A DNA stretch of 38,398 bases from Candidatus Kaiserbacteria bacterium (GTDB taxonomy: Bacteria > Patescibacteriota > Minisyncoccia > Phycocordibacterales > UBA918), in contig JANLIJ010000161.1 in the NCBI GenBank assembly GCA_024653575.1, positions 1 to 38,398 on the forward strand, written 5' to 3'. Each line of letters opens with the position of its first letter. Positions within the stretch are counted from its first letter, which is position 1. Position numbers and translations under genes: made by a program. The notes under the pieces are model-generated. The model was not told the origin of the DNA. It did no database searches and saw nothing but the letters and a program-made list of their open reading frames with translations. This document shows, one piece after another, positions 9,001 through 31,289 of this stretch.

Positions 9001-12000
9001 CGTACACAAAGAGCGCGGGGACTGATTACTGGAGTCACGCAACTGATTTTGACGGTTCCATTCTTGGTTCTCCACGAAACGTGGATGTGTATGTTGCGGG
9101 TGGCGGAAGCATCCTCTATACGGGGGGAGGACTCTCGGTTGTTGGTGACGCAAGCGCTAGTACAACGATACAAAATCAGGGAAGCGGAACGTATACATTC
9201 CGTATTGGTGGCAATGCATCGACGACGTGGTCATATTACCAAATCAGCAACACTGACTCTTCTGGACTCGTGTTCAGCGGTACACCGACAGTCGTGACAC
9301 TCTCACACGGTGATTTCGATGTCACACAGAACTCAGGTACCGCACTCACGGTGGGTGGTACAGTTATGACACAAAATCCTGCAAGGACATTTACAAATAA
9401 TTCCTTTGCAACATCGACAGGTGTCGGTCCTGCGTATAACGTCACTGCAACGGGTACGACTGTTAGCTCGTGGAGATTTACAAACCATACAGGTACCATT
9501 GATGGTGAAGCGTTTGACGTAGACCCAACGGGTGATCCGGGGTATGTCGTGTGGGATGACTCCGCTGCAAACATCACCGTCTCTGGTATTGTGTATAGTG
9601 ATGAAGGGACTACTCCAATGGGTGCTTCAGTCTGCGATGGCGGAACACAGAGTATTCATCTTCGAGTAGGCGGACTCACTTCATATACTGGTTCCTGTAA
9701 CGGTTCGGGAGCATACTCAATTTCAGGCGTTCTGTATAGTCCTGGAGATTCTCTCATTGTCTATATCGATGGGGAAACAGAGAAAGCCGCGACCGTTACT
9801 GAAGATCCTATTTCAAGCATCGGCAACATGGACCTCTACGAAAATAGAGTCATTGTGCGTCACGAGGGGACTGACCCACTCTCGATAGTTGATATGTCTC
9901 TCTGGGATTCTTCGGATGATGCTGATATTCCATTTACTGCAGTGGATGGGTCTCCAGACACATTGACAGTCCCTGCAAACCGTAAACTTATTGTGTGGGG
10001 GAGTAAGGAATTTGAGCCGAACGGTAACGTAACCGTTTCTGGTGGTGGTGGAGGTTCGGCGTATGACGGTACGCTTGAGCTCTATTCAAGCGCAATCTTT
10101 GACGCGACTGGAAGTGAGACGCACACAATCGGAGGAAGTCTCATTGCTGGTGTTGGGGCAAGTATTGATGACGAGACTTCGACATTCACTTTCACCACAA
10201 CAGGAGGTGCTCGAACTATCGATACAAACGAGTATTCATTCTACAATGCAGTGTTTAATGGTTCAGGAAGTTGGACAATTACAAATACTGCACTTGATGT
10301 TGGTAATGACCTTACCATCACACAGGGTGCAGTAACGCTTCCAAGTGGGACAACGACCATCACCGGCACGCTCTCGGTAACTTCAGGGTCATTCAATGCA
10401 AATGGTGGAAATATGCTGTTCAACTCAGCGACAGCTGAGACAATTACTGCGAGTACCTCTGCATTCAATACACTCACCATCAATGGTGCTGGAAGCTTTG
10501 CCCTTCAAGGCACACATGCGACCGCAACCTCGCGAGTACGAATTGAAAATGGAACATTCACGAGTGTATCGGGTACATTCACGGTTGGTGAGAACTTTAT
10601 CAATGACGGTACGTTTGCCCATAACAGTGGCACCCTACGAATGACGTCTGCTGGTACGGCGGTGCTTACAGCAAGCAGTTCGGATCTTGGGAGTGTCATC
10701 TTTAGTGGAGGAGGCGCGTATTCATTTACTGATGAGGATGTTGCACTTTTGGGCTCACTGACAATTCAAAGTGGTGCAGTAGCGATGGCATCAGGTACTA
10801 TGTCTATCGGGGGGTCATTCGTAAATTCTGGAGGTACATTTACTCACGCAACTGGCACAGTCCTCTTTAATTCAAGCGATGTGGGTGAAACGATTAATTC
10901 AGGTGTGTCAACGTTCAACTCTGTTTCATTCGCAAGTGCGAGTGGCGGATGGACTATTACAAATAATGCGACAACGACAGGGAACTTCTCACTCGTGAGT
11001 GCCACTAGCTTCGCGGTAAGTTCAAGTACTCGACTTGCGGTGCAGGGTGTGTTCACCAACCTTGTGGGCGGAGGCGCAACTACGTGGACAGGGAGTACGC
11101 TCGCAATTAATTCAGGAGTCTCATATACCATAAACACGAAAACAAGTGGTGGAGATACCTACAACACGGTGCTTATCTCATCGAGTACCGCGCTCCGTGC
11201 GTGGGACAGTGCCGGTTCCATCGCCGTTATGGATGCAAACTCATCGTTCTACTCGCAGGACCATGCGGGAGTGAGTGGTTCACTCTATATCTTTGGTAAC
11301 TACGTACGAAGAACAGGTGCTGATTATTGGAGTTATGCAACTGATTTTGATGGTACGGCACTCGGGGGCTCCTCTCGTCAGGCGTTTGTTTATATGGCAA
11401 ATGGTGCAACGACAACACTTACAGGCGGTAGTCTTGATATTGTTGGAACTGCAGGTTTTGATACGACAATAAACAATCAGGGGTCAGGTACATATGGAGT
11501 GAACATTATGGGGGGTACACTCAACGCCCAGTATTATAGTTTCACAAATATGGGAGCTGAAGGTCTTACTCTATCAGGCACCACCACAATCACCTCACTT
11601 ACTGAAGGTAACTTCACGCTTGCGCAGAATGGTGGTTCGCTCATCACACTCTCATCGACAACGCTCAATCACAACGCGGGGCTTGTCGTTACTGGTGCAT
11701 CATTTGCAACGACATCTGCGATTACTGGCTATAACATAAATCTTGTTGGCACAACACCAAGTGCGTGGACGTTTGTAAGTCATACCGGCAACCTCAGTGG
11801 GGAAGCATTCGACAATGATGGGGGTGATGACTGTGGTTCTCTCAGGTGGAGTAACAGCACCTGTCTCCTTACACAGCAATCGGGATATCGGTGGAGGAAC
11901 GATGACGGGGGTGAAGGTGTCCCTAACTCTGAGTGGTTTGATTTGGATTGGGGCAAACGCAAGCGAGTTACCGTTACAAACGCTGATGCTATTGCATACA

Positions 12001-14159
12001 CAGATGCGGTTGTTAAATTGACGGTGACCTATGATGCTGATATGCAGGCTGACTTTGATGACGTGCGCTTCACGAGCAGTGATGGTGTAACACCACTTAA
12101 TCACTTTACTGAAACATATAGCGCAAGTTCACAGGCGACCGTCTGGGTGAAGGTACCAACGCTTGCCACATCGACTGATACTGAGGTCTATATGTACTAC
12201 GGCAACGGTGCAGTGAGTGACGGAAGTGCGACGAGTACGTTTGCATATATAGATACGTTTGAGGATGGAGGAATTGCAGAATATTCGGGTGACACGAGTA
12301 TCTTCGCTGTTGATGGAACATACGCGTATGAGAGAACCAATGGCCTCGATGCCACTGGAAACGAGAGTGCGAAGGCAACTGACGGTATATATAGAAATGA
12401 TGTGACGGTCTCACAGGGACAAACAATTCGCTACATGCAGTACATCAGCACCACCGCGGGGTCAGGAGATGAGACCTGTACGCTCTTTGGTGTGCAGTCA
12501 CCAGGAAGTAATAATTTAAACTATGCGGTATGTCTTGAGCTCTTCGGTACTGACCGTGTATCACTCGCAAAGGACGTTGATTACAATGACACATCGGGTA
12601 CGATTCTCGCATCGACGACGATAACGTATGCAACAGGATGGCATGAGGTTGAAATTGATTGGGCGACAGACGATTCCATTGGGGTGACCGTTTCAAGAAA
12701 TGGCACTGTCGTTGCGACAACGTCAGCGACCGATGCGTCATATACACAGGGAGGAGTTGGGTTTACATTCTGGTTCCAAAACGGAGGATGGGATATATAT
12801 TCGAGTCGTACACTTACAGCGACAACGCCAACGACAACCTTTGGGTTTGAACAGGTACCTGGTGGAGCGACATGGCTTGCGCCACTCAATACTACTGCAA
12901 CGGGTGTTGATGTCGGTGACAGTGCGCGTATCCGTTTCCTTGTTGAGAATACAGGCCTGACCGTCGCAAATCAAAATTATGAAATTGAGTTTGCGCCGAA
13001 GGGAGCTTCGCCGAGCTGTGAAGCAGTAAATTATGCGACATATGTCGAAGTACCGAACATCGCAAGCTGCGGCACGAGTGATATCTGTATGGTGTCATCC
13101 TCACAGTTTACAAATCTTGCATCGACAACAGATGTTCTGGGCGGTGCCGGCACATTCACCTACGGCCAAATTGTTGAGGATGCAAGTAACAATACGAGCA
13201 ACATCACACTTAACGATGATGAATATACGGAACTTGAGTATGTGATAACGCCTACCGTAAATGTTACTGATTCAAACTACTGTTTCAGAGTTTCAAATGA
13301 GGGGATTGACCTCGACTCATATGCTCAGGTTGCTGAGCTCGGTCTCCGATTTACACCAAATATTACCTCGCTTGTCTTTAATGACAGCAATGACATCACA
13401 CTTTTGCCAGGTACCACGACGCGCGTGTATGCGACGGGCACCGTTACTGATTTGAATGGGTACACCGATCTCGGGGCTGCAACGACTACGTTCTATCAGA
13501 ACGGTCCTGAAAATGGTGTTGGGTATGGTTGCTCGATCGATAACAACAACTGCTATCGTATGACGACGACGGGAGGTAGTTGCAGTTACACCAATTGTGG
13601 TGGTGATTCATGTGATATCGCGTGTTATGCGGACGTTTACTACCACGCGAATCCGACCGATATATTTTCGCCGGATGATGGTGATGCATGGACTGCGTAT
13701 CTTGAGGTGACTGATTTGGGTGGTGCGGTAGCAACAAATACTTCGTATTCACCTGACCTCATCACGCTTCGTGCCATCTCGATGGATAGTAGTATTGACT
13801 ACGGAGCCCTCGCAGTAAATTCTGATACAGGGGCATACAATGCAACAACGACACTTGAAAATATTGGTAATGGTAACCTCGATATTTCAATTGAAGGAAC
13901 AGATCTCACTGATGGAGGGTCATCCGCTATACCAGTGACACAGCAACACTTTGCGACATCGACATTTAGTTATAGTTCATGTGTCTATTGTAGTTCACTG
14001 GGAACTACATCAATTAACTACAAAATTGATTTGGCAAAACCTGCCTCAACAACACCATCGGTTACTGACGATATTTTCTGGGGTATTGCAATTCCATTTG
14101 GAGTCGCAGGTACACCGCATACAGGTACAAATATTTTCTACGCAATTGGAGATATATAA
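3..14159 (+). CDS. Giant (>4,700 aa) modular surface protein/adhesin, 5'-truncated: FN3-like modules, W-D-G-x-x-W propeller-like insert, three beta-helix-like super-repeats, two DUF2341-type modules, C-terminal Cys-rich + WxL-like module
   Basis: Frame 3 is open from base 3 (FDITQSPLDITG...LRLRMSIHDEN), so the ATG at 294 is internal. It has YYWRVR/YWWRVR FN3-type motifs, YSQDHA...YWS(Y/H)ATDFDG three times, FSDVRFT/FDDVRFT..WVK..YYG (DUF2341) twice, and a TAA stop ending at 14159. Confidence 0.9.
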   Translation, partial: FDITQSPLDITGVSTTTYNNLCLRATLSTTNSSIPSLDDWTLSWEREPYLIQADYRWYANSTSTTPTDPWPVGAVDVDEDEAIITASPGLGSVLRLRMSIHDENVALSTSTSAFKLQYASSTDCTVATWSDVGAIGSSSPEWRGYNNAGISDGVTLSSLLLSTTTVLGTYEEANSSALNPNIVGVGNDVEFDWVLEHNGLAGTQYCFRAVTSDGVELNEYTNYPTLTTNASPNQPTLSTLFDNEKTATVTPNFQFSASDPEGEDLSYQIQIDNDYAFDSTVADRNTVDDGTMFENLATPADKDPFNTGETIEFRLSSALTNGVTYYWRVRSKDPNGSGAWGSWSQIRSFTIDTGLTASAWFQTTDEQFDTDSLEDTETSVAESVSLSGGFTTGTTTGTEVRFDWGTSGNAWDSFTFTDVEASSDLKYRIQYYENEVWADIPDTDLPGNSTGFDTSPVNLLGLDTATYNTIRVVAVFTDAGASPVLQEWTIYWGYKILPPDINMLFPNERQATTTPVLEFFTSDPQGDTLVYQVQWSTTYNFTASTTRTSSSSSGFANITTPADTSPFNSGELIQYTIQPGDALTDNVTYWWRVRAVDPLGSNNYSAFTDPQSFTVSSTTNVSTWFQTTSEQFLTDSLSGITTLAQSATVATTAIESLVGYAEGTAPEPRYRLWDGTVWGSELQALSVGSAITWLSTKPGETREEYLLGTLGTDGDVNIQVYQNGSWGNLQEITTGVPNTTARGFDIAYENVSGDAMVVSCDGDADPVYYIWDGAWTLGGTINLNSSNNCTWIRLMSDPVSDEIILMARDSSGLYYELFVWSGSSWGNSTTLGSMNEVVHEGVTGSYEESGAQAVVVASNGINASFVWKAWDGAVWSATTTVALGDDFESGALVSDVGSDNMALCYVDEDNDIGAVRWTGAGFVATVELETAWAAGSTVKNDRPVDCLFEVGGARDGYIMVAYSDTTNVRYRVWDGAVWVAEASVSTIQDSARVQLRRTFANLPQLVAYDMTNDRYDYSSWNGATWSVFQSLETNGVSGAYPYKEPFMIAPRNPGSTGTIVGNPGIAFYDGAGPYWQELNWTDSEPSGSTILYQVEYYDGVSWELVPDSLIPNNSVGTSTGPISLINVLPVSTYNMIRPVANLSCNLGTCPTLSDWTLTWSAGITVSGTAQQYDQSANLTSGTVAVAINGALQVGRTGTISGGTWSIANVNAAPGDVITVFISGVADTNEAVAKARYDGVGDMSGLRLYERHVTIGSNDATSTPFTNTDLGLYDYSNNEDLFFNATGTALSTCVESGCADAELYIMASTTYAPSGSLTLHDIENNGTLIAQGNTLTVSGSWDNNGTTTMGTSTVIFTATSTTETIDGTGSITNAFYNVTFGNGATTATWTPLSTLDIDNNLTVSNGTLSRDGVQITVGGNLTTGASGFWSGSATTTFDGTGTKNWSDSNAILQNVGNVHVDGTSKTIQLTGNVKAQSVTIGADDILDVSTGNFDITVLTDWINNNTFVPRAGEVIFGATTTNRIITAGGDAFYDLTFNGVGGSWSFTEADLSVTNDFRVSTGTVTMPTGTTTLSGSWNSVGGTFAHNNSTLLMTSGGVETISASGTPFTNNFYTLVFNGLGSWSFLDTSATTSNDFRIQQGTVVLPQTTLSVSGNFMNTGGTFTHNSGTVAFTGTGARVIDTNASFNNVLFGGSGSWSFFDTSVTVLGSFVATNGTVTLPSSTLTLGGSLVNTAVINHNSGTVLFNSSDTGETINLGNSPLYNAIFNSTGGGWTITAPATTTNNFSLSTTSTFTLASGQTLAVLGTFTNNVSNASTTWAGSTLSLEAGNYSINSKTNLGDTYDTLRVKASTDIKMWNSSASLYVVDGTGSLYSQDHAGVDGVLYIFGAYERISGNEYWSYATDFDGTALGGGSRQVDVRFAGGASASFTDATLQILGTAVSTTTVDRQSGGLFGIVLSNSTLNAQYYDIRHQNELGLRLLNGTTITSLANGHFTVDAIGGSAITASSSTIDLNPGLQIYNVQFDTAVGALSDLTTGDGENTFIFFDDFNDGSINTSKWTKDVELGSITETGGYLRAGGGIASGNYGHVSLGSEVGYASFLDNSVVWRARNSTNGIGELVFRGDYGTNRGYKARFDQRVGTNGNAFLETPYSGWTISNGTGTCTSDSLEPVADQWYRYEVTASSTNFIMYRDGASMRNCTDNTFALAGEIALQNHYGSYTDYDWVGVRPFVTPAPTSTSWGVEETVRTGLYRESHVVTGSIIGAQTDYVLPITVNYGAGTDAGSTMYCDSLCNTNFSDVRFTNQDGSPLSYWRDESFATSSTATFWVKFDSIPASPATTSIYAYYGDVSGYNVTQSDGAPTSYWWFRSSLGDIDGESYDNDTGNPGSIRWDDSALTINVSGTVYSDDGVTPMSGPTCNDSTQNIRIVVEGGSSYTGDCASADGTFSIPGVVIVGDPVVTAYLDTNGGAKGTTVTRTPTADITDLDIHQNRVITRHEDTAPLNILNMAVYDFDNDSDIRFTAATGTLTVLSGSELHIASTTTFAPVGDITINANASGTASDGSLHLARNAILTGYATSTYTIGGSFTMDEGAVFSPASTTVVMNATTTGKTITTTASQEISFSTLEFNGAGGGWNINGDVRAYENMLVTQGTVSGTADVTVVNGSLIGDGVLSMGGGTTTINSSNTLGGATAWTFANLVLGNASLVGTTTPSSNATTTILGKLTISTAHFLHAGGSLWNFAGTGNVFTENGTFIEGTSTVRYSGTGATNILSTTYHNLDLKAQGGSPTYTAVGLGIVVSNNAVIGNGTTVTFDTSDPALDVNGNLSIETGGTFIGSGSASTTIAGDWDNNGTFTASGGTIVFDGASASNIYAGNSSFSNVRFNGIGTFTVAEHATATVSLMLRNAGSFTLSSGQTLAVDGTFTNEIGGAGTTWTGSTLSLYGGGNYAINASTTSDIYNVLNVRTNTQIRMWNSSASTYDVHTSGSLYSQDHANVTGDLYIFGAYTKSAGTDYWSHATDFDGSILGSPRNVDVYVAGGGSILYTGGGLSVVGDASASTTIQNQGSGTYTFRIGGNASTTWSYYQISNTDSSGLVFSGTPTVVTLSHGDFDVTQNSGTALTVGGTVMTQNPARTFTNNSFATSTGVGPAYNVTATGTTVSSWRFTNHTGTIDGEAFDVDPTGDPGYVVWDDSAANITVSGIVYSDEGTTPMGASVCDGGTQSIHLRVGGLTSYTGSCNGSGAYSISGVLYSPGDSLIVYIDGETEKAATVTEDPISSIGNMDLYENRVIVRHEGTDPLSIVDMSLWDSSDDADIPFTAVDGSPDTLTVPANRKLIVWGSKEFEPNGNVTVSGGGGGSAYDGTLELYSSAIFDATGSETHTIGGSLIAGVGASIDDETSTFTFTTTGGARTIDTNEYSFYNAVFNGSGSWTITNTALDVGNDLTITQGAVTLPSGTTTITGTLSVTSGSFNANGGNMLFNSATAETITASTSAFNTLTINGAGSFALQGTHATATSRVRIENGTFTSVSGTFTVGENFINDGTFAHNSGTLRMTSAGTAVLTASSSDLGSVIFSGGGAYSFTDEDVALLGSLTIQSGAVAMASGTMSIGGSFVNSGGTFTHATGTVLFNSSDVGETINSGVSTFNSVSFASASGGWTITNNATTTGNFSLVSATSFAVSSSTRLAVQGVFTNLVGGGATTWTGSTLAINSGVSYTINTKTSGGDTYNTVLISSSTALRAWDSAGSIAVMDANSSFYSQDHAGVSGSLYIFGNYVRRTGADYWSYATDFDGTALGGSSRQAFVYMANGATTTLTGGSLDIVGTAGFDTTINNQGSGTYGVNIMGGTLNAQYYSFTNMGAEGLTLSGTTTITSLTEGNFTLAQNGGSLITLSSTTLNHNAGLVVTGASFATTSAITGYNINLVGTTPSAWTFVSHTGNLSGEAFDNDGGDDCGSLRWSNSTCLLTQQSGYRWRNDDGGEGVPNSEWFDLDWGKRKRVTVTNADAIAYTDAVVKLTVTYDADMQADFDDVRFTSSDGVTPLNHFTETYSASSQATVWVKVPTLATSTDTEVYMYYGNGAVSDGSATSTFAYIDTFEDGGIAEYSGDTSIFAVDGTYAYERTNGLDATGNESAKATDGIYRNDVTVSQGQTIRYMQYISTTAGSGDETCTLFGVQSPGSNNLNYAVCLELFGTDRVSLAKDVDYNDTSGTILASTTITYATGWHEVEIDWATDDSIGVTVSRNGTVVATTSATDASYTQGGVGFTFWFQNGGWDIYSSRTLTATTPTTTFGFEQVPGGATWLAPLNTTATGVDVGDSARIRFLVENTGLTVANQNYEIEFAPKGASPSCEAVNYATYVEVPNIASCGTSDICMVSSSQFTNLASTTDVLGGAGTFTYGQIVEDASNNTSNITLNDDEYTELEYVITPTVNVTDSNYCFRVSNEGIDLDSYAQVAELGLRFTPNITSLVFNDSNDITLLPGTTTRVYATGTVTDLNGYTDLGAATTTFYQNGPENGVGYGCSIDNNNCYRMTTTGGSCSYTNCGGDSCDIACYADVYYHANPTDIFSPDDGDAWTAYLEVTDLGGAVATNTSYSPDLITLRAISMDSSIDYGALAVNSDTGAYNATTTLENIGNGNLDISIEGTDLTDGGSSAIPVTQQHFATSTFSYSSCVYCSSLGTTSINYKIDLAKPASTTPSVTDDIFWGIAIPFGVAGTPHTGTNIFYAIGDI

Positions 14160-14218
14160 AATCAATCACAAAATGTGGTCAGGTGTGAGATGAGTTTAAA
14201 GTTATCCGATTGAGCTAG

Positions 14219-14247
14219 TTTCTTATTTCTTATTTCTTATTTACTAT
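14219..14247 (+). repeat. (TTTCTTA)x3 heptamer tandem running into a TACTAT -10-like box
   Basis: Three exact TTTCTTA units at 14219-14239. TACTAT at 14242-14247 lies 6 nt before the ATG at 14254. Confidence 0.6.
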
Positions 14248-14253
14248 AGAGGT

Positions 14254-15753
14254 ATGATTCGTTCGCTTTCCACAGCGATTTTGACGCTCTTTGTGATTGC
14301 ATACTATGTGCAGGTTATGCCTGTCGTGCGTGCAGCTGACACTGTCCCACCTGATATTACGAATGTTCAGATTACGAACGTTGCGGAGGACACTGTTACC
14401 GTGACGTGGGTGACCGATGAGGATGCAGACTCAACCATAAACTATGGACTTCAGGAGGACTATGGAATTGTGCGTATTCCTGAGGCAAACCGTACGGAAC
14501 ACTCAGTGACACTCGATAATCTTGAGCCTGGTCGTACCTACTACTTCCGCGTAGTTTCGTCTGATGAGGATGGTAACCAAGGGATTTCTGCAAACTATAA
14601 GGTGCTCACTGAAGGCAACCCCGAGTCAGGAAGTGATTCAGGAAAGGGAAGTGAGACACAGACAGAGACGAGTCAGACAGTGCAAACACAATCACAGACA
14701 ACGCAAGAAATTGTTGAACAGATTCAGCAAATCCAGTCACCCGAGACACTTCAGGAAATTCTCAATGAGACCGTGAAGGCGATTCAGGGCATTACTGAGG
14801 ACCTTACCATCGTCGGTCCTCCAACCGTTGTTACAGAGACCACAAGCGCAATTGTGAAATGGACAACAGACAGAGCTGCAAGCTCTGAGGTTCGCTTTTC
14901 ATCATCTGATACATACATTCCTGAACAGTATGAATTCTCTCAAGCAAGCACTGATGCCGATACGACTGACCACGAGGTGCGCATCATTGGTCTCGAACCA
15001 TATACCGAGTATCACTTCCAAGTTCGTTCAAAGGACAGTTATGATATTACCGGCACGAGTCGAGATTACACCTTTAGAACGAAAGCATCACTACCCGATA
15101 TAAAGAACTTGCATATATTGAAAGTTGAGGAAAACTCTGCGACGCTTGCGTGGGACACTACCGTCCCCGCGAAGGCGCTCATTGAATATCAAGACCTCAC
15201 AACGGGTGCGCAAAACTCGATTGGGCGACCAACACTTGCCTCGACGCATCAGATGAGAATCTCTGACCTTACACTTGGAACGCGCTACGTTGCCTTTGTT
15301 ATCGCTGAAAATGCAGGAGGGGACAGAGTAAAGAGTAACCCAATCACTTTCGTTACGGTGAAGGATACTGCGCCACCAATCATTAGTAACGTGACCAACG
15401 AATCGACCATTTTCCCTGGTGGTGAGTCTCGTATTCAAACTATTATAGAGTGGCTCACCGACGAGCCTGCACATTGTGCGCTTTCATATCGCGAAGGTAT
15501 ATCAGGAGGTATTGATCCAACAGTCATTGACTCAAAGGACAGTGGTTTTACAGCACAGCACGTTGAGGTGATTGTGGAGTTTGCTCCTGCAACGGTATAC
15601 CAATTTTGGCTCGAATGTGCAGATGATGCGGGGAACTCGGTGAAATCTGAGAACTACGTGCTCTTCACACCAATTCAAGAGAAAAATATTATTGATATCA
15701 TTATTGAGAACTTCGAAAGCACCTTCGGATGGGTTAAGAACGTTGGCGGGTAG
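14254..15753 (+). CDS. Secreted fibronectin type III repeat protein (about 4 FN3/purple-acid-phosphatase-N-like domains)
   Basis: Signal peptide (..VRA-AD). Repeated W-x-T-D..H-x-V-x-L-x-x-L-x-P-x-x-x-Y-x-F-x-V motifs, a Q/T-rich linker and an amphipathic C-terminal helix (IIDIIIENFESTFGWV). Confidence 0.85.
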   Translation: MIRSLSTAILTLFVIAYYVQVMPVVRAADTVPPDITNVQITNVAEDTVTVTWVTDEDADSTINYGLQEDYGIVRIPEANRTEHSVTLDNLEPGRTYYFRVVSSDEDGNQGISANYKVLTEGNPESGSDSGKGSETQTETSQTVQTQSQTTQEIVEQIQQIQSPETLQEILNETVKAIQGITEDLTIVGPPTVVTETTSAIVKWTTDRAASSEVRFSSSDTYIPEQYEFSQASTDADTTDHEVRIIGLEPYTEYHFQVRSKDSYDITGTSRDYTFRTKASLPDIKNLHILKVEENSATLAWDTTVPAKALIEYQDLTTGAQNSIGRPTLASTHQMRISDLTLGTRYVAFVIAENAGGDRVKSNPITFVTVKDTAPPIISNVTNESTIFPGGESRIQTIIEWLTDEPAHCALSYREGISGGIDPTVIDSKDSGFTAQHVEVIVEFAPATVYQFWLECADDAGNSVKSENYVLFTPIQEKNIIDIIIENFESTFGWVKNVGG

Positions 15754-15870
15754 AATATAGAATAGAAAATATAGGATATGGAATATAGAATAGAAAAAAT
15801 AAAAAATATAACATATGCAACGCGAAGCGTTGCTATATTCTATATTCCATATTCTCTATCCTGTATCTAA
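15751..15870. repeat. Heptamer-periodic (AGAATAT / ATATTCT) inverted repeat around a GCAACGC-GAA-GCGTTGC hairpin
   Basis: Perfect 17-bp inverted repeat at 15776-15792 / 15836-15852. Central 7-bp stem at 15817-15833. Confidence 0.8.
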
Positions 15871-15876
15871 TTTATT

Positions 15877-17199
15877 ATGTCAAAACCACTCATTATATGT
15901 AGGAACCTTGACATCACCTATAATAAGGGGAAGTCGAATGAATTTAAGGCGCTTCAGGGTGTAAACACTGACATTTACGAGGGCGAGTATATTATTCTCT
16001 TTGGACCATCGGGTTGTGGAAAGTCAACACTCATGTACGCCATACAGGGTTCACTTCCACCGGGTGATGGGACATTACTTATACGAGGCGATGATATTTA
16101 CTCATATCCCCCACAGGAGCGCGTCTACTTCCAGAGATATGTCATGGGAATTATTTTTCAGTCATTCAATCTCATTGGCTCCCTCTCGGTGCTCGATAAT
16201 GTTGCGCTTCCCATGATTTTTTGTGATGCAAATAAAGCGACACGCGAACGAAGGGCACAAATGTTGCTCGACAGGTTTGGTGTTGGTCACGTATCCGATA
16301 AGATTCCCTCAATGCTCTCAGGAGGACAGCAACAGCGTGTCTCTGTAGCGCGTTCCATGGTGAACGATCCGCAGATTCTACTCGCTGATGAACCAACAGG
16401 GAACCTCGATAGCACATCGACACAGCAGGTTATGGATAAGATTGACGAAATTAACACCTTTGATCAACGCACCATTATCATGGTCTCACACAATGCAGCT
16501 CACCTCTCATACGCTCATCGTGTGTACTACCTCAAGGATGGATTCATTGTGCGTGAGGTGGTGAATCCTCAGAGAAAGCAAATTAAACCCGTTCGTGAAG
16601 GTGAGACTATTGTAACTGAACTCGAACTGCTTGCGCGTCTTTTTCCCTACGACTCTATAGACACCCTTCGTGTAAAAAGTCTTACCAATTTTTTAACGCA
16701 AGATTATTCATTCAACCAACTTATTCGTATCGAGAAAGCTATCAGCCTTCTTATAAATGGAAAGATTCACAAAAAACTATTTATCGATGCACTGGTGAAA
16801 AAGTATGACGAAGGTGGGGTAGGAATAGAGAGGAAAACAGCAGAGCATATGGCGAGTGCTTCGGTCTCTATCGTGAAGCAGTCAGCAGATATTAAGCGTT
16901 TCAGAAGTGACAATGATTCCGATGCGGCATTCTTTTCGCAACATAAATTCGCTGAACGCGTGCGCGAGTATCTTCTAGAAAATCATCACATTCCACTCAC
17001 AAAAGTAATGGAGGCAAACCTTACTACGATGATTGCTGACAGGCTCTCCGGCGTCACGGGAGATAAAGATTTCCATAGAGAACTCATGGCGCTCACCAAG
17101 GATGGTGGCCTTCACCTCAAAGAAGATCTCGCTGATGATATGGCGCGGTACATGGAGAAACTCATCGCCCTCGGTGTTGATGTGAGCTACAAGGCGTAA
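15877..17199 (+). CDS. ABC transporter ATP-binding protein, MacB/LolD family, with ~210-aa C-terminal extension
   Basis: Walker [10 protein letters not shown]-loop IFQSFNLI, signature LSGGQQQR, Walker B/D-loop [13 protein letters not shown]-loop MVSH. Confidence 0.95.
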
Positions 17200-17256
17200 T
17201 AAACATAATTGTTATGGCTTGTGTCCCCATCTCACCGAGATAGTATCTACATACAT

Positions 17257-17265
17257 TGTTATACT
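17257..17265 (+). promoter_or_regulatory. Extended -10 promoter (TG-T-TATACT)
   Basis: TGTTATACT ends 9 nt before the ATG at 17275, and no SD sequence is present. Confidence 0.55.
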
Positions 17266-17274
17266 ACTTGTACT

Positions 17275-17799
17275 ATGTTCCCAACATTTCGTGTGTTCAC
17301 CGAACGTCACCCACGATACGTTACTCTTGTGGGATTTTCTATTTTTGTCTTGGGTATGACACTGTATGGTTTCCAGCAAATATCTGAGCGAACAGTAGTA
17401 AAGGTGCCGCCGATAGTCAATAATGAAAATACGGAAGAATTACAAAAATCTCTTCTTGAACCAATGAGGACAGATTTTGGTGCGAGTGTACCTGATGGTT
17501 TTGTCGCCGATATTCCAGTTGAGGGAGGGGTGATGTTTGAACAGAGCTATAGCCTCGAATACCCAGAACAGAAGCAATTGTCTGTGGTTTTCCCTTCGGC
17601 ACTGAATGTAAAAGAAAACTATATTCTGTATGAGGATTTTCTCAAAGATCAAGGGTGGAATGTTTTAAATAGGTATGAGAGTGATATGGTGTCCTCGCTA
17701 TATGCAACAAAGGAAAATGAAGAAGTTAATGTAACCATTGGTGAACTTGGTGCAGGCATGGCAAAATCACAGGTGAGTATTAGTATTTTGAAAAAATGA
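17275..17799 (+). CDS. Membrane-anchored hypothetical protein (~174 aa)
   Basis: ATG 17275 is preferred over the track start at 17209 because the promoter lies between them. One N-terminal TM helix, then a PDGFVADIP...Y..FLKDQGW domain. ATGA overlap with the next gene. Confidence 0.75.
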   Translation: MFPTFRVFTERHPRYVTLVGFSIFVLGMTLYGFQQISERTVVKVPPIVNNENTEELQKSLLEPMRTDFGASVPDGFVADIPVEGGVMFEQSYSLEYPEQKQLSVVFPSALNVKENYILYEDFLKDQGWNVLNRYESDMVSSLYATKENEEVNVTIGELGAGMAKSQVSISILKK

Positions 17800-20381
17800 A
17801 CACACTACGCGCTGTCTTTATAATTTTTACATTATTGCTCATAGCACCGAGTGTGTCGTTTGCTTCAGGAGGGACAATAACTTATACAGATTCTTCAGGA
17901 TTAAATCCACGATCATCACCAGCGTACGTAGGTGGGTATGTTGTTGAGACTTTTAACTCATCTGGTTCCTTTGTTATAAATACAATCCTAAGTAATGTGG
18001 AATACTTAGTTGTAGGGGGTGGTGGAGGGGGTGGTGGAGGCTTTGGAATTAGTTCTGGCGGTGGGGCAGGTGGATTGTTATCTGGGACAATCGTCTCATT
18101 GCCTGTTGGTGTTTATCCAATCACAATAGGTTCAGGAGGAGTAATGACAAATAATGGAGAGAATTCATCAGCATTAGGTTTTGTCACGAATGGAGGTGGT
18201 GCTGGAGGAGGCAGTTCATCAGCATTATCTGGGGGGTCAGGCGGTGGAGGTGGCCCATACGTTGGGTATTCCGCTCCCGGTACTGGTATCGCAGGTCAGG
18301 GTAACTCAGGTGGAACTGGGGCAACGGGTATGGGGGTAAACGGTTGTGCCGGGGGAGGTGGCGCTGGTGGTGTTGGAAGTAATGCTAAATGGATTGGCGG
18401 AACTGGTATTGGGGGTCCGGGTTCAGCTTCGTCAATTAGTGGTATCTTAACTTATTATGCTGGTGGCGGTGGTGGCTGTTCATACCAAGGGGGAATAGGT
18501 GGCGGTGGTTCTGGAGCGACTCCAGGCGTCAATGGGACTGGTGGTGGTGGAGCATCTCTCACTTCAGGTGGTTCTGGGATTGTTATTATACGATATCGAT
18601 ATAGCATTGATCTCGGAACAATTAATGTTTCATCAAATCTATCTGGTGCCTCATGGACAATTACTGGACCTGAGACCATAACAGGAAATGGGACATCTCA
18701 GACAAATTCAAATAAACCAGTTGGGACATACACGATTATGTGGGGTAGTGTGCCAGGGTATACTACTCCTGCAACGCAGAGTTTTACACTCACGTCAGGT
18801 AATACGATTAATTTCAGTGGGAGTTACATTTCAACATTGGCTGATCTTACCGCAGGACCTGTTACACCATTAACAACTCCCGTCAATACACCGACAACAT
18901 TCTCTTCTGCGATAATGAATATTGGAGGAGTGTCCACGAGCGAATTTGGAGGTTCGTGCTTACAGCTCACAATTTCGAGCGATACAAAAAATTATAATAT
19001 GCGTACCGCTGCAGATACCGCAGGATGGGTGGCGGGTCAGCCAATATGTCTGACTGTTAATCCAGGTGTCAGTGTAGGTTCGCTATCAACAGCACAACCA
19101 GCAATGACTACAGGGATCTTTCCGGTTGGTACGAGTATAAATATAGTTAATAGGGGTTCTATCATTGGGGCAGGAGGGAATGGGGGGAGGGGGACAAATC
19201 AAGGGTCAACATTTGTCTCTCCTAATTCTGCTACAAATGGAGAAAACGGAGGCAACGCTCTCTCGCTGAATCTTGATGTGAAGTTAGATAATACTTCGGG
19301 AACAATTCTTGGAGGTGGTGGCGGTGGTGCCGGATCTTGGGCTTACGTAGGTTCATATGGTGGAGGTGGAGGTGGAGGTGCTGGCAGTCTTCCAGGAAGC
19401 GGTGGTTTAAAGGGAAATATCGCAGGTGGTGATTTTTCAAATTGGTGTGTTGGAACAAATGGCTCTGCTGGAAGTACTGGCGGTGGTCTGGGTGGTAATT
19501 CAGCATACCAGTATGGATGTCCATTTAACGCAGGGTACACTCCCTTGTATGGTGGAACTGGAGGAAACTATGGCCAAAACGGTGCAAATACTTATGCAAT
19601 TGCAACCAATATTAATGGGTATGGTGGTTTGGCGGGTACTGCAATTGTGTATAACGGTTTTACCACCAGTGCACTGGTTACTGATTTTTCAAACTTCTTC
19701 CAGGTTGCAACTGCTCCGAATGGTGGTGGTACCGTCATTGATTTACCAGCTACTACAATGAGCCCAGTGAATGCGGGTGATACACGTAATGCAACAGTAT
19801 CACACACCTTCATGTCGGCAGGAACATATTCTATGCGTGCTTGTGCTGACGGTACGACATCTCTTGGTGGAGGAGTAATAACTGAATCTAACGAAACTAA
19901 TAATTGTGGTCCGTGGACAGATATTGTTGTTTCTCCTCCAACACCTCCTAATCCCTGCGCCCTGACGTCCATCAATGATTGCTTCCTCCCCGACACACCC
20001 TCAGGAGGAAATGCAGGTGCGTGTATATCTTTAGGAACATGTAACTACTCCTGCACAAACGGCGCATGGACACAGAATACAAATTCCTGTGTCAACCCAC
20101 CCGAGAACCCCATACTCACCGTCAACAGACGCACCGTGGAGAAAGACGGCACCGTCACCCTCACCTGGGACACGAAGAATGGCAATGAAGCACTCTGTAC
20201 CCTCACCGCATACAGTGAAGGACCGAACCTCATCACCGCAGACGGAGACTCCATAGGCTCACTGAACGCCACTATACCCGCCCGCAGTACGTACACGCTC
20301 TCCTGTCCAAACCCACTCGGTGGAGCACCACTCACGGACACCGTCTCGGTAGACATTGTGCCGGTGGGGGTGGAGACGTAG
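17796..20381 (+). CDS. Secreted glycine-rich adhesin: Gly-rich domain, PEGA-like domain, CARDB domain split by a phage gp38-like polyglycine domain, Cys-rich and Ig-like C-terminus
   Basis: Signal peptide (..SFA-SGG). VEYLVVGGGGGGG...GGSGIVIIRY, GTINVSSN..GTYTI..VPGY, ADLTAG..NIGG and GTYSMRACAD..ITESNETNNC motifs. Confidence 0.85.
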   Translation: MNTLRAVFIIFTLLLIAPSVSFASGGTITYTDSSGLNPRSSPAYVGGYVVETFNSSGSFVINTILSNVEYLVVGGGGGGGGGFGISSGGGAGGLLSGTIVSLPVGVYPITIGSGGVMTNNGENSSALGFVTNGGGAGGGSSSALSGGSGGGGGPYVGYSAPGTGIAGQGNSGGTGATGMGVNGCAGGGGAGGVGSNAKWIGGTGIGGPGSASSISGILTYYAGGGGGCSYQGGIGGGGSGATPGVNGTGGGGASLTSGGSGIVIIRYRYSIDLGTINVSSNLSGASWTITGPETITGNGTSQTNSNKPVGTYTIMWGSVPGYTTPATQSFTLTSGNTINFSGSYISTLADLTAGPVTPLTTPVNTPTTFSSAIMNIGGVSTSEFGGSCLQLTISSDTKNYNMRTAADTAGWVAGQPICLTVNPGVSVGSLSTAQPAMTTGIFPVGTSINIVNRGSIIGAGGNGGRGTNQGSTFVSPNSATNGENGGNALSLNLDVKLDNTSGTILGGGGGGAGSWAYVGSYGGGGGGGAGSLPGSGGLKGNIAGGDFSNWCVGTNGSAGSTGGGLGGNSAYQYGCPFNAGYTPLYGGTGGNYGQNGANTYAIATNINGYGGLAGTAIVYNGFTTSALVTDFSNFFQVATAPNGGGTVIDLPATTMSPVNAGDTRNATVSHTFMSAGTYSMRACADGTTSLGGGVITESNETNNCGPWTDIVVSPPTPPNPCALTSINDCFLPDTPSGGNAGACISLGTCNYSCTNGAWTQNTNSCVNPPENPILTVNRRTVEKDGTVTLTWDTKNGNEALCTLTAYSEGPNLITADGDSIGSLNATIPARSTYTLSCPNPLGGAPLTDTVSVDIVPVGVET

Positions 20382-20448
20382 GTAAACACTTTTGTGTGTA
20401 TTAAAAACGTATCTTATTTCTCGTTTCTCATTTATTATTTAGACACCT

Positions 20449-21657
20449 ATGCAAGTTGCTGATCTTGCTCGTCTTTCGACGAGAGCCTTTAAAACAAATC
20501 CACTCCGTACATGGCTGACGATTCTTGGTATGGGTGTGGGTACTGGTGCTGTCGTGGTGCTCGTGGGACTCGGCTTTGGTTTGCAACAAATCATTTTGGA
20601 ACAGATTGTCTTCGGGGACAGTCTCCTTTCTCTTGGTGTATCCGCAACAGGAGCGAAGAACCTCTCTATCACCGACGATGTTATTCAGAAATTTGAAGAG
20701 AATGAATATATTGAGGACGCAGCACCTCTTGCGCGCTATCCAGCACTTATTACCTATAAGGGTCTTACGGGTAACGTGTTCATTCAGGGTGCAGAGCCAG
20801 CGTATCTTCGCTATGCAGGTATAACCGCATCAAACGGTACTGCCTTTGTTGAAGAGGATATTGCAAACGGCAATGAAATAATGCTTTCCCCAGCGGTATT
20901 AAAGCTCTTTGGTGTTGAAGATCCAAAAGCATTTATTGGTCAAGAAGTCACTTTTAGACTCCTCGTTCCCGATACGGAAAACAGTGAACTTATTACAGAG
21001 ATTAATATTGAGAAGAAATATCGAGTGAAGGGAATCACAAAGGAGGAAGGAGTGCTCAATGTACTCATGATGTTGCCTGAACTCAAGAACTATGTCGGGA
21101 TTGAGGAGTACGACAGGGCACAGGTTAAGGTCGTTTCAAACCAATTTCTTGCATTGGCAGAAGAGGAACTCATTAAGGAAGGGTACCGAGTGACAGCACT
21201 TTCAAAGACTGTCGAGCAGGCATCGAAGATTTTTCAGGGAATTCAGGTGGTACTCGCAACATTTGGAGGTATCGCGCTCCTCGTATCCGCAATTGGTATG
21301 TTCAATACTATGACGGTGACGCTCCTCGAGCGGACCAAGGAAATTGGTATCATGAGAACAATTGGTGCTTCTCCAAGTGATATCAAGTCACTCTTCGTTT
21401 CTGAGTCAATTGTTGTTGGTTTTCTCGGGGGAGTGAGTGGGATAGTTATGGGGGTAACTTTGGGATTTGCTGTGAATATCATGTTGAACATTGCAGCGAG
21501 TCAGTTCGGTGGTACCTCGGTAAACCTCTTTTCGTTCCCTGTGTGGTTCCTTCTCTTTATTGCAATATTCTCAGCAGTTGTGGGGTATTTGACCGGAATC
21601 TTCCCAGCCAGAAGAGCCTCATTACTCAATCCACTCGACGCTATTCGCTATGAGTAG
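20449..21657 (+). CDS. ABC transporter permease, MacB/FtsX family (type VII ABC)
   Basis: N-terminal RTWLTILGMGVG TM, a large extracytoplasmic domain, IGMFNTM..ERTKEIGIMRTIGA, three further TMs and a C-terminal PARRASLLNPLDAIRYE. Confidence 0.95.
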   Translation: MQVADLARLSTRAFKTNPLRTWLTILGMGVGTGAVVVLVGLGFGLQQIILEQIVFGDSLLSLGVSATGAKNLSITDDVIQKFEENEYIEDAAPLARYPALITYKGLTGNVFIQGAEPAYLRYAGITASNGTAFVEEDIANGNEIMLSPAVLKLFGVEDPKAFIGQEVTFRLLVPDTENSELITEINIEKKYRVKGITKEEGVLNVLMMLPELKNYVGIEEYDRAQVKVVSNQFLALAEEELIKEGYRVTALSKTVEQASKIFQGIQVVLATFGGIALLVSAIGMFNTMTVTLLERTKEIGIMRTIGASPSDIKSLFVSESIVVGFLGGVSGIVMGVTLGFAVNIMLNIAASQFGGTSVNLFSFPVWFLLFIAIFSAVVGYLTGIFPARRASLLNPLDAIRYE

Positions 21658-21662
21658 CTACC

Positions 21663-21704
21663 TGTGTATAACTCACGCTTTTTCTTATCAACATAACGTA
21701 AAAT
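21663..21704. promoter_or_regulatory. Pair of DnaA-box-like sites plus a TAAAAT -10-like box
   Basis: TGTGTATAA at 21663-21671 (reverse complement TTATACACA, matches TTWTNCACA), TTATCAACA at 21685-21693 (one mismatch) and TAAAAT at 21699-21704. Confidence 0.55.
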
Positions 21705-21731
21705 TGTAGTAAACAAGTTCATATATATTGT

Positions 21732-23576
21732 ATGTCATATAACACAGATCATTTACAGACGGCAGGTAAAATAACTGTGTATACCACACTTATTGGAGTA
21801 GTCGCTTTTGCAGTAATTTTTATTTTCAACATTGGTGAAAATAAAATCAAACAGGCAGATGCGCAGAGCACAGCGACAACTTCTGTTACGGTACTCAACA
21901 CGCCACCAGCATGGACTGCCTCCTCGACAGAGCTCGTTGAGTCTTCACAGGGGAATCCAACAAATGCCGGTGATGTAGTTTCCTGGGTTGCAATTGGTAC
22001 AGACTCAAACAGTGAGCCATATTATCTTCTGATATGTAGTACAAACGCCTCGCCGACACCAAATTCAAGTGCTGCGCCAGCCTGTTCAGCAGGAGTACAG
22101 TGGGCAGTTTCAGCGTCAACCACAAGTGGTACACTTGCAACTGCAGCGACCACAACACTCAGTGCATGGGCTGAGTCAAATGCATGGTACGCGTGGATTT
22201 GTGATGACAACTCAGGAACACCAAGGTGTAGCGCTACGTATACGCAGGGAACAAATGCAACCAACTCTTCTCCATTTGAAGTAAATCACAGACCAGCCTT
22301 CACAATCTTTAACGATAATTCACCGGCTGACCCTGGGCAGACTGTTACCTTCACAAGTACTTCGTCTGATTCAGACACATCTGGTTCACCTGATACTGTT
22401 TTCCTCACAGTCTGTGCAAGCTCTGGATTTAATACAACAACAAATGCGTGTACTGGTACAACGCTTGCCACGTCAACAGTGAGTGTTGCATCCGATGCCA
22501 CAGCTTCATACACAATTGTTATCCCAACACAGGACCAGAACTATAGTGCATTCGGATATGTGACTGACAACCATGGTTTTGAGGCTACTGGCGGTGCTCA
22601 GGATACAGATTCAACTCTATCAGTAAACAATGTGGCGCCGACAGTCTCGGGAGCAACTGTTTCATTGGTACAGGCAACGACAACTGACATTATTCTCACC
22701 ACAGAGTCAGGTGAAACGACAGGCTTTACGCTTTCCTTTACCACAGCAGATAACAATAGTTGTGATGCAGCAGGCGGTGGTCCAGCAGATGAAATTGCAA
22801 GTTATGACTTAAGTGTGTATAGAACACCTACTGGAAATAGTTCTACAACATGTATCGTAGCAGGTGATTATGATGCGAATAACTGCTATACAAGCGCAGT
22901 AGCTACCACAACTTGGAATCTATCATGTACATCAAATGCTGGCACATGCTCAGGCTCTGGGGACACGGACATGACATGGGACTGTACATTCCCACTTTGG
23001 TACATTGCAGATCCAACAGGCAATGCGACGTCCACATTCTATTCAACTGACGAGTGGAGATCTCAGGTTCGTGGGATAGACGACGATTCAGCAATAGGCT
23101 CGTTTGGTGAGAGTTCAGTTGGGGTTGATGTTCAACCACTGCTCGCATTTGCGCTCAATACACTCTCAATTCCATACGGCGCACTTGAACCAGGACAACA
23201 GACTGATCCTCTTATAGCAACGACAACGATTTCTGCTACAGGTAATGTCGGTCTCGATAAGGATGTTCAAGGGGAGTCTATGTGTACGACATATACAACC
23301 GCATCACCATGTGCGCCTTCAGCAACATCAACAATCCCTGAGAGTGAACAGGTATTCGCGACAAGTACCACAAGTTATGCAGCTGGTGTGTCGCTTTCCT
23401 CAACAACCCCTCAGGAAGTTGAAATCAATGTACTCAAGTCAACTTCAACGTCAACACCAGCAACCGCCAATGCCTACTGGGGTATACGAGTCCCAGGCTC
23501 AATTACATTTGCTGGAGATTACACAGGGGAGAATACATTCACTGCAATAATTGGAGAAACTGCTGAGTGGCAGTAA
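21732..23576 (+). CDS. Secreted Thr/Ser/Cys-rich protein with C-terminal WxL/TasA-like module; candidate fibre subunit
   Basis: Hydrophobic N-terminus then ADA-Q cleavage-like site. Its last ~310 aa align with the giant protein C-terminus (NNCY, ADPT, YGAL, GNVGLD, WGIRVP, YTGENTF). Confidence 0.8.
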   Translation: MSYNTDHLQTAGKITVYTTLIGVVAFAVIFIFNIGENKIKQADAQSTATTSVTVLNTPPAWTASSTELVESSQGNPTNAGDVVSWVAIGTDSNSEPYYLLICSTNASPTPNSSAAPACSAGVQWAVSASTTSGTLATAATTTLSAWAESNAWYAWICDDNSGTPRCSATYTQGTNATNSSPFEVNHRPAFTIFNDNSPADPGQTVTFTSTSSDSDTSGSPDTVFLTVCASSGFNTTTNACTGTTLATSTVSVASDATASYTIVIPTQDQNYSAFGYVTDNHGFEATGGAQDTDSTLSVNNVAPTVSGATVSLVQATTTDIILTTESGETTGFTLSFTTADNNSCDAAGGGPADEIASYDLSVYRTPTGNSSTTCIVAGDYDANNCYTSAVATTTWNLSCTSNAGTCSGSGDTDMTWDCTFPLWYIADPTGNATSTFYSTDEWRSQVRGIDDDSAIGSFGESSVGVDVQPLLAFALNTLSIPYGALEPGQQTDPLIATTTISATGNVGLDKDVQGESMCTTYTTASPCAPSATSTIPESEQVFATSTTSYAAGVSLSSTTPQEVEINVLKSTSTSTPATANAYWGIRVPGSITFAGDYTGENTFTAIIGETAEWQ

Positions 23577-23622: not shown

Positions 23623-23688
23623 GCGTTTATGGCGCAAGTATTTGATAATTAAGGAACAGATATGACTTCGCATATCTGCATTTACATA

Positions 23689-24615
23689 ATGAAGTTTTTT
23701 CGCTCATTCCTGATTATAATTGCAGTACTTTTTTTTAATGTGCATGCACTGTATGCTGGCTTTGGTGTGACTCCGCCTTATGTATCGAATGTAAGTCTTA
23801 CACGGAATTCAGTATATGAACAAACGATTTATCTTGTGCGCAGTGACCCTACAACAGACCTGAAAGCAACAGTAAGTATTGATGTCCCTGGCGTCAATGA
23901 GTGGTTTGTAATCAATGAAGGAAATGAGTTTGTTTTGCCAAGAGGTGAGCAGAAGGTACCGATGACCGTAAAGGTCACTGTTCCTGACGATGCTGATTTT
24001 AAGCAGTATTCAGGGAACATCAGAATTAAGACAGGCGCAACTGATGACAAAGTACAGGGAGGCGCGGTGAGCATTTCACTCGGTGCACAGATTGATGTTG
24101 ATATCACTGTTATTGATAAAAAGATTAAAGATTTTAAAGTTAGAAAAATTGGTGTCTCAGATCTCAATGAGGGGCATAAGGTTGGGTGGCTCTATTATCC
24201 AGGAAAGATTACTTTTGAGATGTTCATTGAGAACATTGGGAATGTACCAATTGCACCATCTGACGTAGTCTTTAGAATATATGATAAATCAGGAAATGTA
24301 TTACTTGAAGAGGCTCATAAAAAGGGAAAGATTGAACAAGTAGAACCATTTGCCACAAAGTCAGTAATAGCAGAGTTGCCAACCAAGCTTCCTTCAGGAA
24401 GTTACCTTGCGAGGTTTGAAATTAAAAATGGTGATGATACAAAACTGAGTGGTGAGGTCAACCTTAGTGTGCTCCCGTACGGTACACTCCAGACGGCAGG
24501 CTTTGGCTTCCTCGGTCTATCTCTCGCACACAAACTCTCAGTAATAGTTCCAATTTTGTTCTTTATTACAATCCCACTCGCTATCCTCGTTCGTGCAAAA
24601 AGAAGGAGGAGATAG
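23689..24615 (+). CDS. DUF916/DUF3324-like (WxL-interacting, chaperone-like) two-Ig-domain protein with C-terminal membrane anchor
   Basis: Signal peptide MKFFRSF..LYA, then FGVTPP, YSGNIRI..LGAQI, FIENIGNV and LPSGSYLA motifs. C-terminal TM followed by KRRRR. Alternative start at 23662. Confidence 0.7.
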   Translation: MKFFRSFLIIIAVLFFNVHALYAGFGVTPPYVSNVSLTRNSVYEQTIYLVRSDPTTDLKATVSIDVPGVNEWFVINEGNEFVLPRGEQKVPMTVKVTVPDDADFKQYSGNIRIKTGATDDKVQGGAVSISLGAQIDVDITVIDKKIKDFKVRKIGVSDLNEGHKVGWLYYPGKITFEMFIENIGNVPIAPSDVVFRIYDKSGNVLLEEAHKKGKIEQVEPFATKSVIAELPTKLPSGSYLARFEIKNGDDTKLSGEVNLSVLPYGTLQTAGFGFLGLSLAHKLSVIVPILFFITIPLAILVRAKRRRR

Positions 24616-24616
24616 T

Positions 24617-25743: not shown

Positions 25744-25900
25744 GAGTATAAGTATTTAGTATAAGTATGGAGTATACGAAAACACAACCACTAAATGCTA
25801 CGAACCAAACGCTAATCACCAATCACTAAGTGCTAACTCTTATGTATAATTGCAGTCGTTGCCTTTAAATACTGATACTCATACTAAATACTAATACTAA
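25744..25900. repeat. AGTAT / ATACT 6-7-nt periodic inverted repeat
   Basis: AGTATTTAGTAT at 25751-25762 is the reverse complement of ATACTAAATACT at 25881-25892. About 5 units per arm, with an inner CACTAA-like array. Confidence 0.75.
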
Positions 25901-27801: not shown

Positions 27802-27842
27802 TTTTTATACACCCTCCATGCATGTGAGTGCACGCAAACTCT

Positions 27843-27851
27843 TGCTATACT
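27843..27851 (+). promoter_or_regulatory. Extended -10 promoter (TG-C-TATACT)
   Basis: TGCTATACT ends 12 nt upstream of ATG 27864. Confidence 0.6.
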
Positions 27852-27863
27852 ATGTTTATATAT

Positions 27864-30615: not shown

Positions 30616-30616
30616 A

Positions 30617-31279: not shown

Positions 31280-31289
31280 TTAGTTGTCT

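Follow-up and report, generated by a model that had tools for sequence, protein, structure and literature searches.

Clusters that encode a small WxL protein, a large WxL protein and a membrane-anchored protein are known from lactobacilli, where the Csc set consists of CscA (DUF916), CscB (small WxL) and CscC (large WxL). According to the available part of their description, the Elr WxL proteins of Enterococcus faecalis form a pilus by donor-strand exchange, with a donor strand at the N terminus of the small WxL protein, a C-terminal WxL attachment module that stays invariant while its payloads vary, and a membrane-anchored chaperone (10.64898/2026.10.17.759780). The same portion of that source reports the system from Bacillota only and states that WxL domains had long been taken as non-covalent wall binders (10.64898/2026.10.17.759780). 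Strand exchange is also described, in the accessible part of the source, for the Pam pili of the Candidate Phyla Radiation (CPR) bacterium Mycosynbacter amalyticus, which rely on chaperones with a transmembrane helix at the C terminus and also comprise a membrane anchor and a tip subunit (PMC13278184). Here we analyze a window of 38,398 nucleotides (the whole stretch of DNA considered, contig C123 within a 1.03-Mb assembly of 220 contigs, 94.8% complete) from Candidatus Kaiserbacteria bacterium, in which a giant protein and a protein of 614 amino acids (aa), p614, end in the same two-domain module, and in which the gene of a membrane protein, p317, follows that of p614. A preliminary description of this window had proposed that the module attaches a huge passenger to the structure that also holds the small subunit, in the manner of large and small WxL pairs. 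The features on which our comparison depends are the following.

3..14159, + strand: gene of the giant protein, an open reading frame (ORF) open at its 5' end, 4,718 aa in the window
13350..13751, + strand: domain 1 of the giant's module, an Ig/PKD-like beta sandwich with conserved cysteines (alignment to the modeled module, model, fold search)
13752..14156, + strand: domain 2 of the giant's module, a beta sandwich ending in HTGTNIFYAIGDI (BLASTP, MAFFT, model, profile match)
21732..23576, + strand: p614, the small carrier of 614 aa (ORF)
21732..21863, + strand: signal peptide of p614 (80% consensus of 114 full-length homologues, hydrophobicity)
21864..21908, + strand: conserved strand QSTATTSVTVLNTPP after ADA, the likely mature N terminus of p614 and a candidate donor strand
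22626..23138, + strand: domain 1 of the p614 module, model residues 1-171 (model, fold search)
23139..23573, + strand: domain 2 of the p614 module, model residues 172-316 (model, fold search)
23662..24615, + strand: p317, made up of a signal peptide, an ectodomain and, just before RAKRRRR, a hydrophobic helix at the C terminus; it is a candidate for a membrane-anchored chaperone or an anchor

As in the Elr/WxL system, a C-terminal attachment module is common to a large (here putative) adhesin and to a small subunit, while the payloads vary, the same cluster encodes a membrane-anchored helper with a C-terminal helix (a two-domain protein in Elr), and a conserved strand lies at the mature N terminus of the small subunit. 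Different from that system, the module has two domains with conserved cysteines and no WxL Pfam match, the carriers are devoid of LPxTG, the organism belongs to the CPR and not to the Bacillota, and strand exchange is here a proposed mechanism. In particular, WxL PF13731 has no match in the whole genome, in a search where the Lactococcus lactis control scores. The Csc clusters share with our locus the trio of a small, a large and a membrane-anchored protein, and differ from it in the same respects as Elr/WxL. With the Pam system, as far as its available description goes, the locus has in common the phylum, the beta-sandwich subunits and the absence of an usher, the Pam chaperones having a transmembrane helix at their C terminus and the Pam operon encoding tip and anchor subunits. 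However, the Pam donor is an inter-domain linker whereas the candidate donor here is an N terminus, and no giant adhesin is mentioned in the accessible part of the Pam report (PMC13278184). Moreover, none of 50 module carriers matches CPR_Pam_pilin_C (NCBIfam NF058581) at E <= 1, and p379, a protein of the cluster with distant similarity to the Pam pilin C-terminal domain, is found in only 6 of 16 module-positive genomes. The tip adhesins of chaperone-usher pili (FimH, PapG, CfaE, CsuE) are likewise built as an adhesin body followed by a pilin-type domain, but they are Gram-negative proteins that depend on a periplasmic chaperone and an outer-membrane usher, and they are connected to our module by generic fold scores and no sequence similarity. 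Since the sequence tests of both the WxL and the Pam families fail, we treat the cluster as one that works like Elr/WxL and Pam and is a member of neither. As a whole, our reading is that the module would be a surface-attachment module working by chaperone-assisted donor-strand complementation or exchange, to which we assign a probability of about 0.5.

The shared C-terminal module

Homology was established between the C-terminal 269 aa of the giant (13350-14156) and the C-terminal 316 aa of p614 (22626-23573). In a pairwise comparison of the last 718 aa of the giant with p614, BLASTP aligned residues 513-715 of the former with residues 381-606 of the latter (E 9e-16, 31% identity, 236 columns), and MAFFT returned 34% identity between the two stretches. 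Since circularity was to be avoided, two hidden Markov models (HMMs) were built with modules from other genomes only and searched against the 6,550 ORFs of the genome: the one from nine giant-type modules matches the window's p614 at 3e-24 (residues 358-606), and the one from 15 small-type modules matches the C terminus of the window's giant at 1e-14. Thus, the sharing of a C-terminal module, as put forward in the preliminary description, is borne out, and its eight motif pairs were all found in both translations. Its first stretch (13350-14156) translates without interruption. The position that it gave as the start of the second stretch, 22627, is off the reading frame by one base and leads into stop codons, for which reason the stretch must start at 22626. 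The significant alignments begin near DNNNCY/DANNCY and leave outside the first ~60 residues of the module (NDITL/TDIIL), which the AlphaFold2 model assigns to the Ig-like domain that is also predicted for the aligned part. In 28 modules, of the giant type and the small type alike, 21 alignment columns are invariant, four cysteines among them.

As previously described, neither protein has a C-terminal transmembrane segment or an LPxTG motif: LP.TG is absent from both sequences, and the highest 19-residue Kyte-Doolittle mean within the last 100 aa is 0.96 for the giant and 0.59 for p614. The genome contains two sortase genes, both on other contigs. The giant and p614 appear to be exported by cleavable signal peptides, without a membrane or sortase anchor of their own.

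A full-length relative of the giant, 99% identical to it, has 6,562 aa (P0126). DUF2341 (Pfam) was detected within the last 718 aa of the giant, and the giant family includes at least 120 proteins of 2,664-7,538 aa that carry this domain; DUF2341 in large CPR proteins is mentioned in the available part of PMC11809585. The p614 family includes at least 814 proteins of ~612 aa from Paceibacterota/Minisyncoccia records, named only "hypothetical," and no Pfam domain was found in it. We could also notice that YRWRNDDGGE, which precedes the DUF2341 part of the giant (window 11700-11800), resembles the start MHYHWRNDNGSE of a unit present in two copies in a 3'-open protein of 1,444 aa (window 34065-38396).

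The two-domain organization that had been proposed was recovered by AlphaFold2: the model of the p614 module (102-sequence alignment) shows two beta-sandwich domains, residues 1-171 and 172-314, with a predicted local distance difference test score (pLDDT) of 94 and a predicted template modeling score (pTM) of 0.88. The best fold match of domain 1 is a PKD/Ig domain (4xed_A, Z 7.7, root-mean-square deviation [rmsd] 2.5, 93/97 aligned). Domain 2 matches PapD-like/ASH and MSP domains (Z 7.3-7.0; 6fvi_A, Z 7.3), and its match to the Csu pilin 7zl4_A (Z 6.7, rmsd 3.0, 111 aligned) is tied with those to PapD-like, MSP and other Ig folds. When the two domains are taken together, they superpose on FimH (3rfz_A, Z 7.1, rmsd 4.1, 220 aligned). 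The top rows obtained with Foldseek include fused CfaB-CfaB (3f84_A, probability 1.0), CfaE-CfaB, CupB6 and CsuE, and the same rows also hold AgI/II C-terminal domains and integrins. Since all of the Z scores of the module are below 8, in the generic range in which a match may reflect a mere common arrangement, these fold matches are compatible with a pilin-type fold and are no proof of one.

At the sequence level, no Pfam family, PKD included, matches either module at E <= 10, nor does any NCBIfam family of note match it, and a search of the PDB with the module, p379 and p317 returned nothing below E 0.6. Profile-profile comparison of the module domains with all of the other cluster families gave no significant match, the best being those with the C-terminal domain of p379 (E 0.07) and with the dockerin protein (0.0086 over 37 columns). 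In a protein-language-model Atlas, the rows for domain 2, WxL and SCPU included, reach 0.79-0.80 at best, which is noise level, and were not used.

The matches with adhesins bear on a different explanation, according to which the module would be a distal functional head, that is, a ligand- or host-binding tandem that directs both proteins to the same target, with attachment to the cell achieved in another way. Two-domain beta-sandwich tandems are indeed common in adhesin tips, and FimH and the AgI/II C-terminal domains are adhesins. We regard this explanation as very unlikely, since both proteins apparently have cleavable signal peptides and no other anchor, since tracking a single membrane protein as closely as described below for p317 is not what one would expect of a head, and since the small proteins that consist of little more than the module would then be heads without a body.

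With a threshold of E <= 0.001, a module profile made of two sequences retrieved 936 cluster representatives out of 1.84 billion. In 143 of the 149 representative carriers that were re-scanned, the module ends no more than 12 residues from the C terminus. The representatives range from 108 to 2,645 aa, below the size range of the giant family, and module-only proteins have ~300 aa. A search for further clients of the module in this genome had been suggested; none beyond the giant and p614 was found among the 6,550 ORFs with phmmer and a 128-sequence HMM; other genomes give up to 5 or 6 module matches (G368). A description of the module was not found in the literature searched on Patescibacteria and Pam pili, on WxL and donor-strand systems and on DUF2341 giants.

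These data also allow us to consider shared ancestry alone, in which a structural Ig tandem would have spread by domain shuffling without any common function as a handle. In its favor, tandems of Ig-like domains are mobile, the conservation of the module does not exceed that of neighboring parts of the giant, and in a few carriers the module is internal. Nevertheless, the C-terminal position in 143/149 representatives, the strict gene order and co-occurrence with p317, and the invariant columns shared by modules of both types, cysteines included, are difficult to reconcile with this explanation, which we consider improbable.

Gene order and linkage to p317

Besides the giant, p614 and p317, the cluster in the window includes the following features.

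14254-15753, + strand: fn3 protein
15877-17199, + strand: ABC ATPase
17209-20381, + strand: variable insert with a 196-aa protein and a Gly-rich 861-aa protein (Gly_rich_2, CARDB)
20449-21657, + strand: MacB/FtsX-type permease
24593..25741, + strand: dockerin-bearing Ig protein (DUF4215, Big_6, Dockerin_1), found after p317 in nearly all loci
26192..27331, + strand: p379, distantly similar to the Pam pilin C-terminal domain
27828-28880 and 28792-30615, + strand: cohesin-like proteins with C-terminal membrane helices (Pfam Cohesin match sub-threshold)
within 27828..32030, + strand: 220-aa protein
31284-32030, + strand: 248-aa protein, cohesin-like in part, that ends in a dockerin/EF-hand

The same order, i.e., giant, fn3 protein, ABC ATPase, FtsX-type permease, small carrier, p317, dockerin protein, p379 and cohesin-like proteins, occurs in 16 loci of other genomes. 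In more distant genomes, the fn3/ABC/FtsX block is often missing, and the core is represented by the large carrier, the small carrier, p317 and the dockerin protein. Where contigs permit, the loci repeat the order large carrier, small carrier, p317, and the p317 gene usually lies directly downstream of the small carrier, starting within ~100 bases of its stop. The conserved ectodomain of p317 begins with GFGVTPPYV. The genes for the 196-aa and the Gly-rich 861-aa proteins have no match in the 16 loci of other genomes and, for this reason, look like a lineage-specific insertion.

The co-occurrence of the module and p317 was followed in two genome samples, whose members are related, so that the counts overstate independence and describe a linkage more than they represent a statistical test: in a class sample of 301 genomes, the module (E <= 1e-5) is present in 16 and p317 (E <= 1e-20) in the same 16, the other 285 genomes giving only four weak partial p317 matches, and in a phylum sample of 401 genomes, the module (E <= 1e-5) is present in 16, one of them weak (5e-6), and p317 (E <= 1e-15) in 12, all of which belong to the 15 clear module carriers. 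The phylum sample also gives 14 weak partial p317 matches, 13 in module-negative genomes and one in a carrier (G633), and two of the three clear carriers without a strong p317 match have the module at a contig end.

The C-terminal position of the module, the order large carrier, small carrier, p317 and the co-occurrence with p317 uphold the part of the preliminary description that sees in the module a handle joining a huge passenger and a small subunit; its designation as a sorting signal has no support of its own. The reading as a handle is well supported by the architecture of the carriers and by the linkage, and it is quite probable that the module is a shared attachment handle linked to p317.

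In the Atlas, p317 (0.93, 211 shared features) adjoins a Bacillota cluster, 98% of whose members carry WxLIP_PGBD and WxLIP_HBD (former DUF916/DUF3324). Among 17 members of the p317 family examined with Pfam, two have a sub-threshold WxLIP_HBD match in the same place (E 0.015 and 0.17), and none has WxLIP_PGBD.

A p379 match was found in 22 genomes of the class sample, only 6 of which have the module. The model of p379 is weaker than that of the module (pLDDT 77); its N-terminal domain has its best fold matches in YweA and in Gram-positive pilin domains (Z 11.0 to 9), and its C-terminal domain in TLP-1b (9ikk_A, Z 7.7). Given the presence of p379 in only 6/16 module-positive genomes, we do not retain as a generality that it would be the pilin docking into the module. 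In this genome, CPR_Pam_pilin_C matches p379 and two other ORFs, all below its 55-bit cut-off. ORFs similar to p379 or to the Pam pilin C-terminal domain occur elsewhere in the genome (C110, 18082-19248 and 22693-23274; C103, 21551-21994), and the best CPR_Pam_pilin_C match, of 37.5 bits, belongs to a 633-aa ORF of C103.

The cohesin-dockerin set may represent a second attachment system in the same cluster. As for the intergenic regions, an AT-rich inverted repeat lies at the stop codon of the fn3 gene (window 15753-15866; arms 15762-15792 and 15836-15866, 84% complementary), and another one follows the stop codon of the dockerin gene (arms 25745-25768 and 25875-25898, 92% complementary). A hairpin with 30-nt arms, 93% complementary, and a 3-nt loop is found ~40 nt past the p379 stop (27370-27432), and two direct repeats of 78 nt, 92% identical, occupy the spacer ahead of the cohesin-like gene (27561-27748).

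The N-terminal strand of the small carriers and the proposed mechanism

The preliminary description had indicated the N-terminal strand QSTATTSVTV of p614 as a possible donor, and this strand turned out to be conserved and specific to small carriers, in which D-x-ATTSVTV-x-N-x-x-P directly follows the likely signal-peptidase site (A-D-A/Q in p614; V/A-x-A sites), as read by eye with no signal-peptide program. In particular, taking as small the representatives of <= 760 aa with a signal-like start (n = 54), the strict pattern is present in 29, and an HMM built from these 29 adds 9 (38/54); none of the 18 large representatives has the strand. The strict pattern matches those 29 alone in 101,286 aa. 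Minimal small proteins of ~300-320 aa (L016, G066, G208 and G029) consist only of the signal peptide, the strand and the module. The combination of a strand and N-x-x-P also closes internal domains of p614 (SPFEVNHRPAF and STLSVNNVAPTV), and the N-terminal copy therefore looks like a last strand without a domain of its own.

The N-region of the p614 signal peptide, MSYNTDHL(Q/R)TAGKITVYT, which reads MSYNTDHLRTAGKITVYT in the window (residues 1-20, 21732-21790), is at least 80% conserved in 114 homologues. Such conservation is not common in signal peptides that are cleaved and may point to export or recognition through a dedicated step. Among the N termini compared (P0126 and other giants; L020, P0319, P0331), large carriers have a different short conserved motif just after the signal peptide, exemplified by RKLDTLYVLPGEV, VKILPSSI, VQIIPGSV and IKIFPVAY; mid-size carriers have WPQ...FPPxV in this position instead.

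The strand and the linkage to p317 bear jointly on the possibility of a static anchor, in which the module would bind the p317 ectodomain or the cell wall without polymerization and the N-terminal strand would be the first strand of the first domain of the small protein. The tight linkage to p317, the C-terminal membrane helix of the latter, the confident folding of domain 2 alone and the long-standing view of WxL domains as non-covalent wall binders, as reported in the available part of the source cited above (10.64898/2026.10.17.759780), would all agree with it. However, a static anchor leaves unexplained the location of the strand exactly at the likely signal-peptidase site, its restriction to small carriers together with its retention in module-only small proteins, and the pairing of a large and a small carrier. 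On balance, we consider a static anchor unlikely.

According to the donor-strand reading that we favor, the module would tie the giant and p614 to one structure that depends on the membrane-anchored p317. The free N-terminal strand of the small protein would complete domain 2 either in the subunit that comes next or in the giant, and since it would do so, the small protein could form a shaft or act as an adaptor, on which the giant would ride as an adhesin; p317 would prime or anchor the subunits at the membrane. Binding, strand insertion, subunit order and the chaperone role of p317 are thus what we infer, and for the donor-strand mechanism the arguments are the analogy with the known systems, the strand specific to small carriers and the weak fold resemblance; we hold its chances to fall slightly short of even.

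Several observations weigh against this reading. Besides the generic range of every fold match, domain 2 folds alone with a pLDDT of 96-98 and seven strands by DSSP, and may for this reason be a complete fold. Neither CPR_Pam_pilin_C nor any Pfam family recognizes the module carriers, as said above, and the profile-profile comparison of the module domains with the C-terminal domain of p379 is not significant (E 0.07). Within the close giant family, the identity of the module is 52-59%, no better than the 47-63% of what remains of the C-terminal half. Six of the 149 representatives have an internal module, and in large proteins of two genomes (G195 and G066) ~350-385 aa come after it. Finally, the relatedness of the sampled genomes reduces the weight of the co-occurrence with p317. 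The two large carriers with an internal module are located as follows.

L021, 3559-7242: large carrier of G195
L018, 3046-7920: large carrier of G066

By eye, the stretch after the module in the G195 carrier is DUF2341-like and LamG-like, an arrangement that inverts the order seen in the giant of the window.

Display of giant proteins in small CPR genomes

Giant surface proteins are among the largest genes of small CPR genomes and are thought to mediate attachment to the host cell, which raises the question of how they are held on cells without an outer membrane. A conserved, unannotated module, a small partner and a membrane-anchored helper provide a concrete and testable model for their assembly, and the module offers a sequence handle to find such adhesins, as represented by its 936 representatives. 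If the donor-strand mechanism were true, this mode of building fibers would extend beyond chaperone-usher pili, the WxL proteins of Bacillota and Pam pili. It is possible to hypothesize, in a more tentative way still, that Patescibacteria hold a third lineage of usher-less, chaperone-assisted donor-strand fibers, unrelated in sequence to the other two. In that case, the same module would serve to mount adhesins from 1,000 to 7,500 aa in size, and this would account for the display of the largest proteins by cells whose genomes measure 1 Mb.

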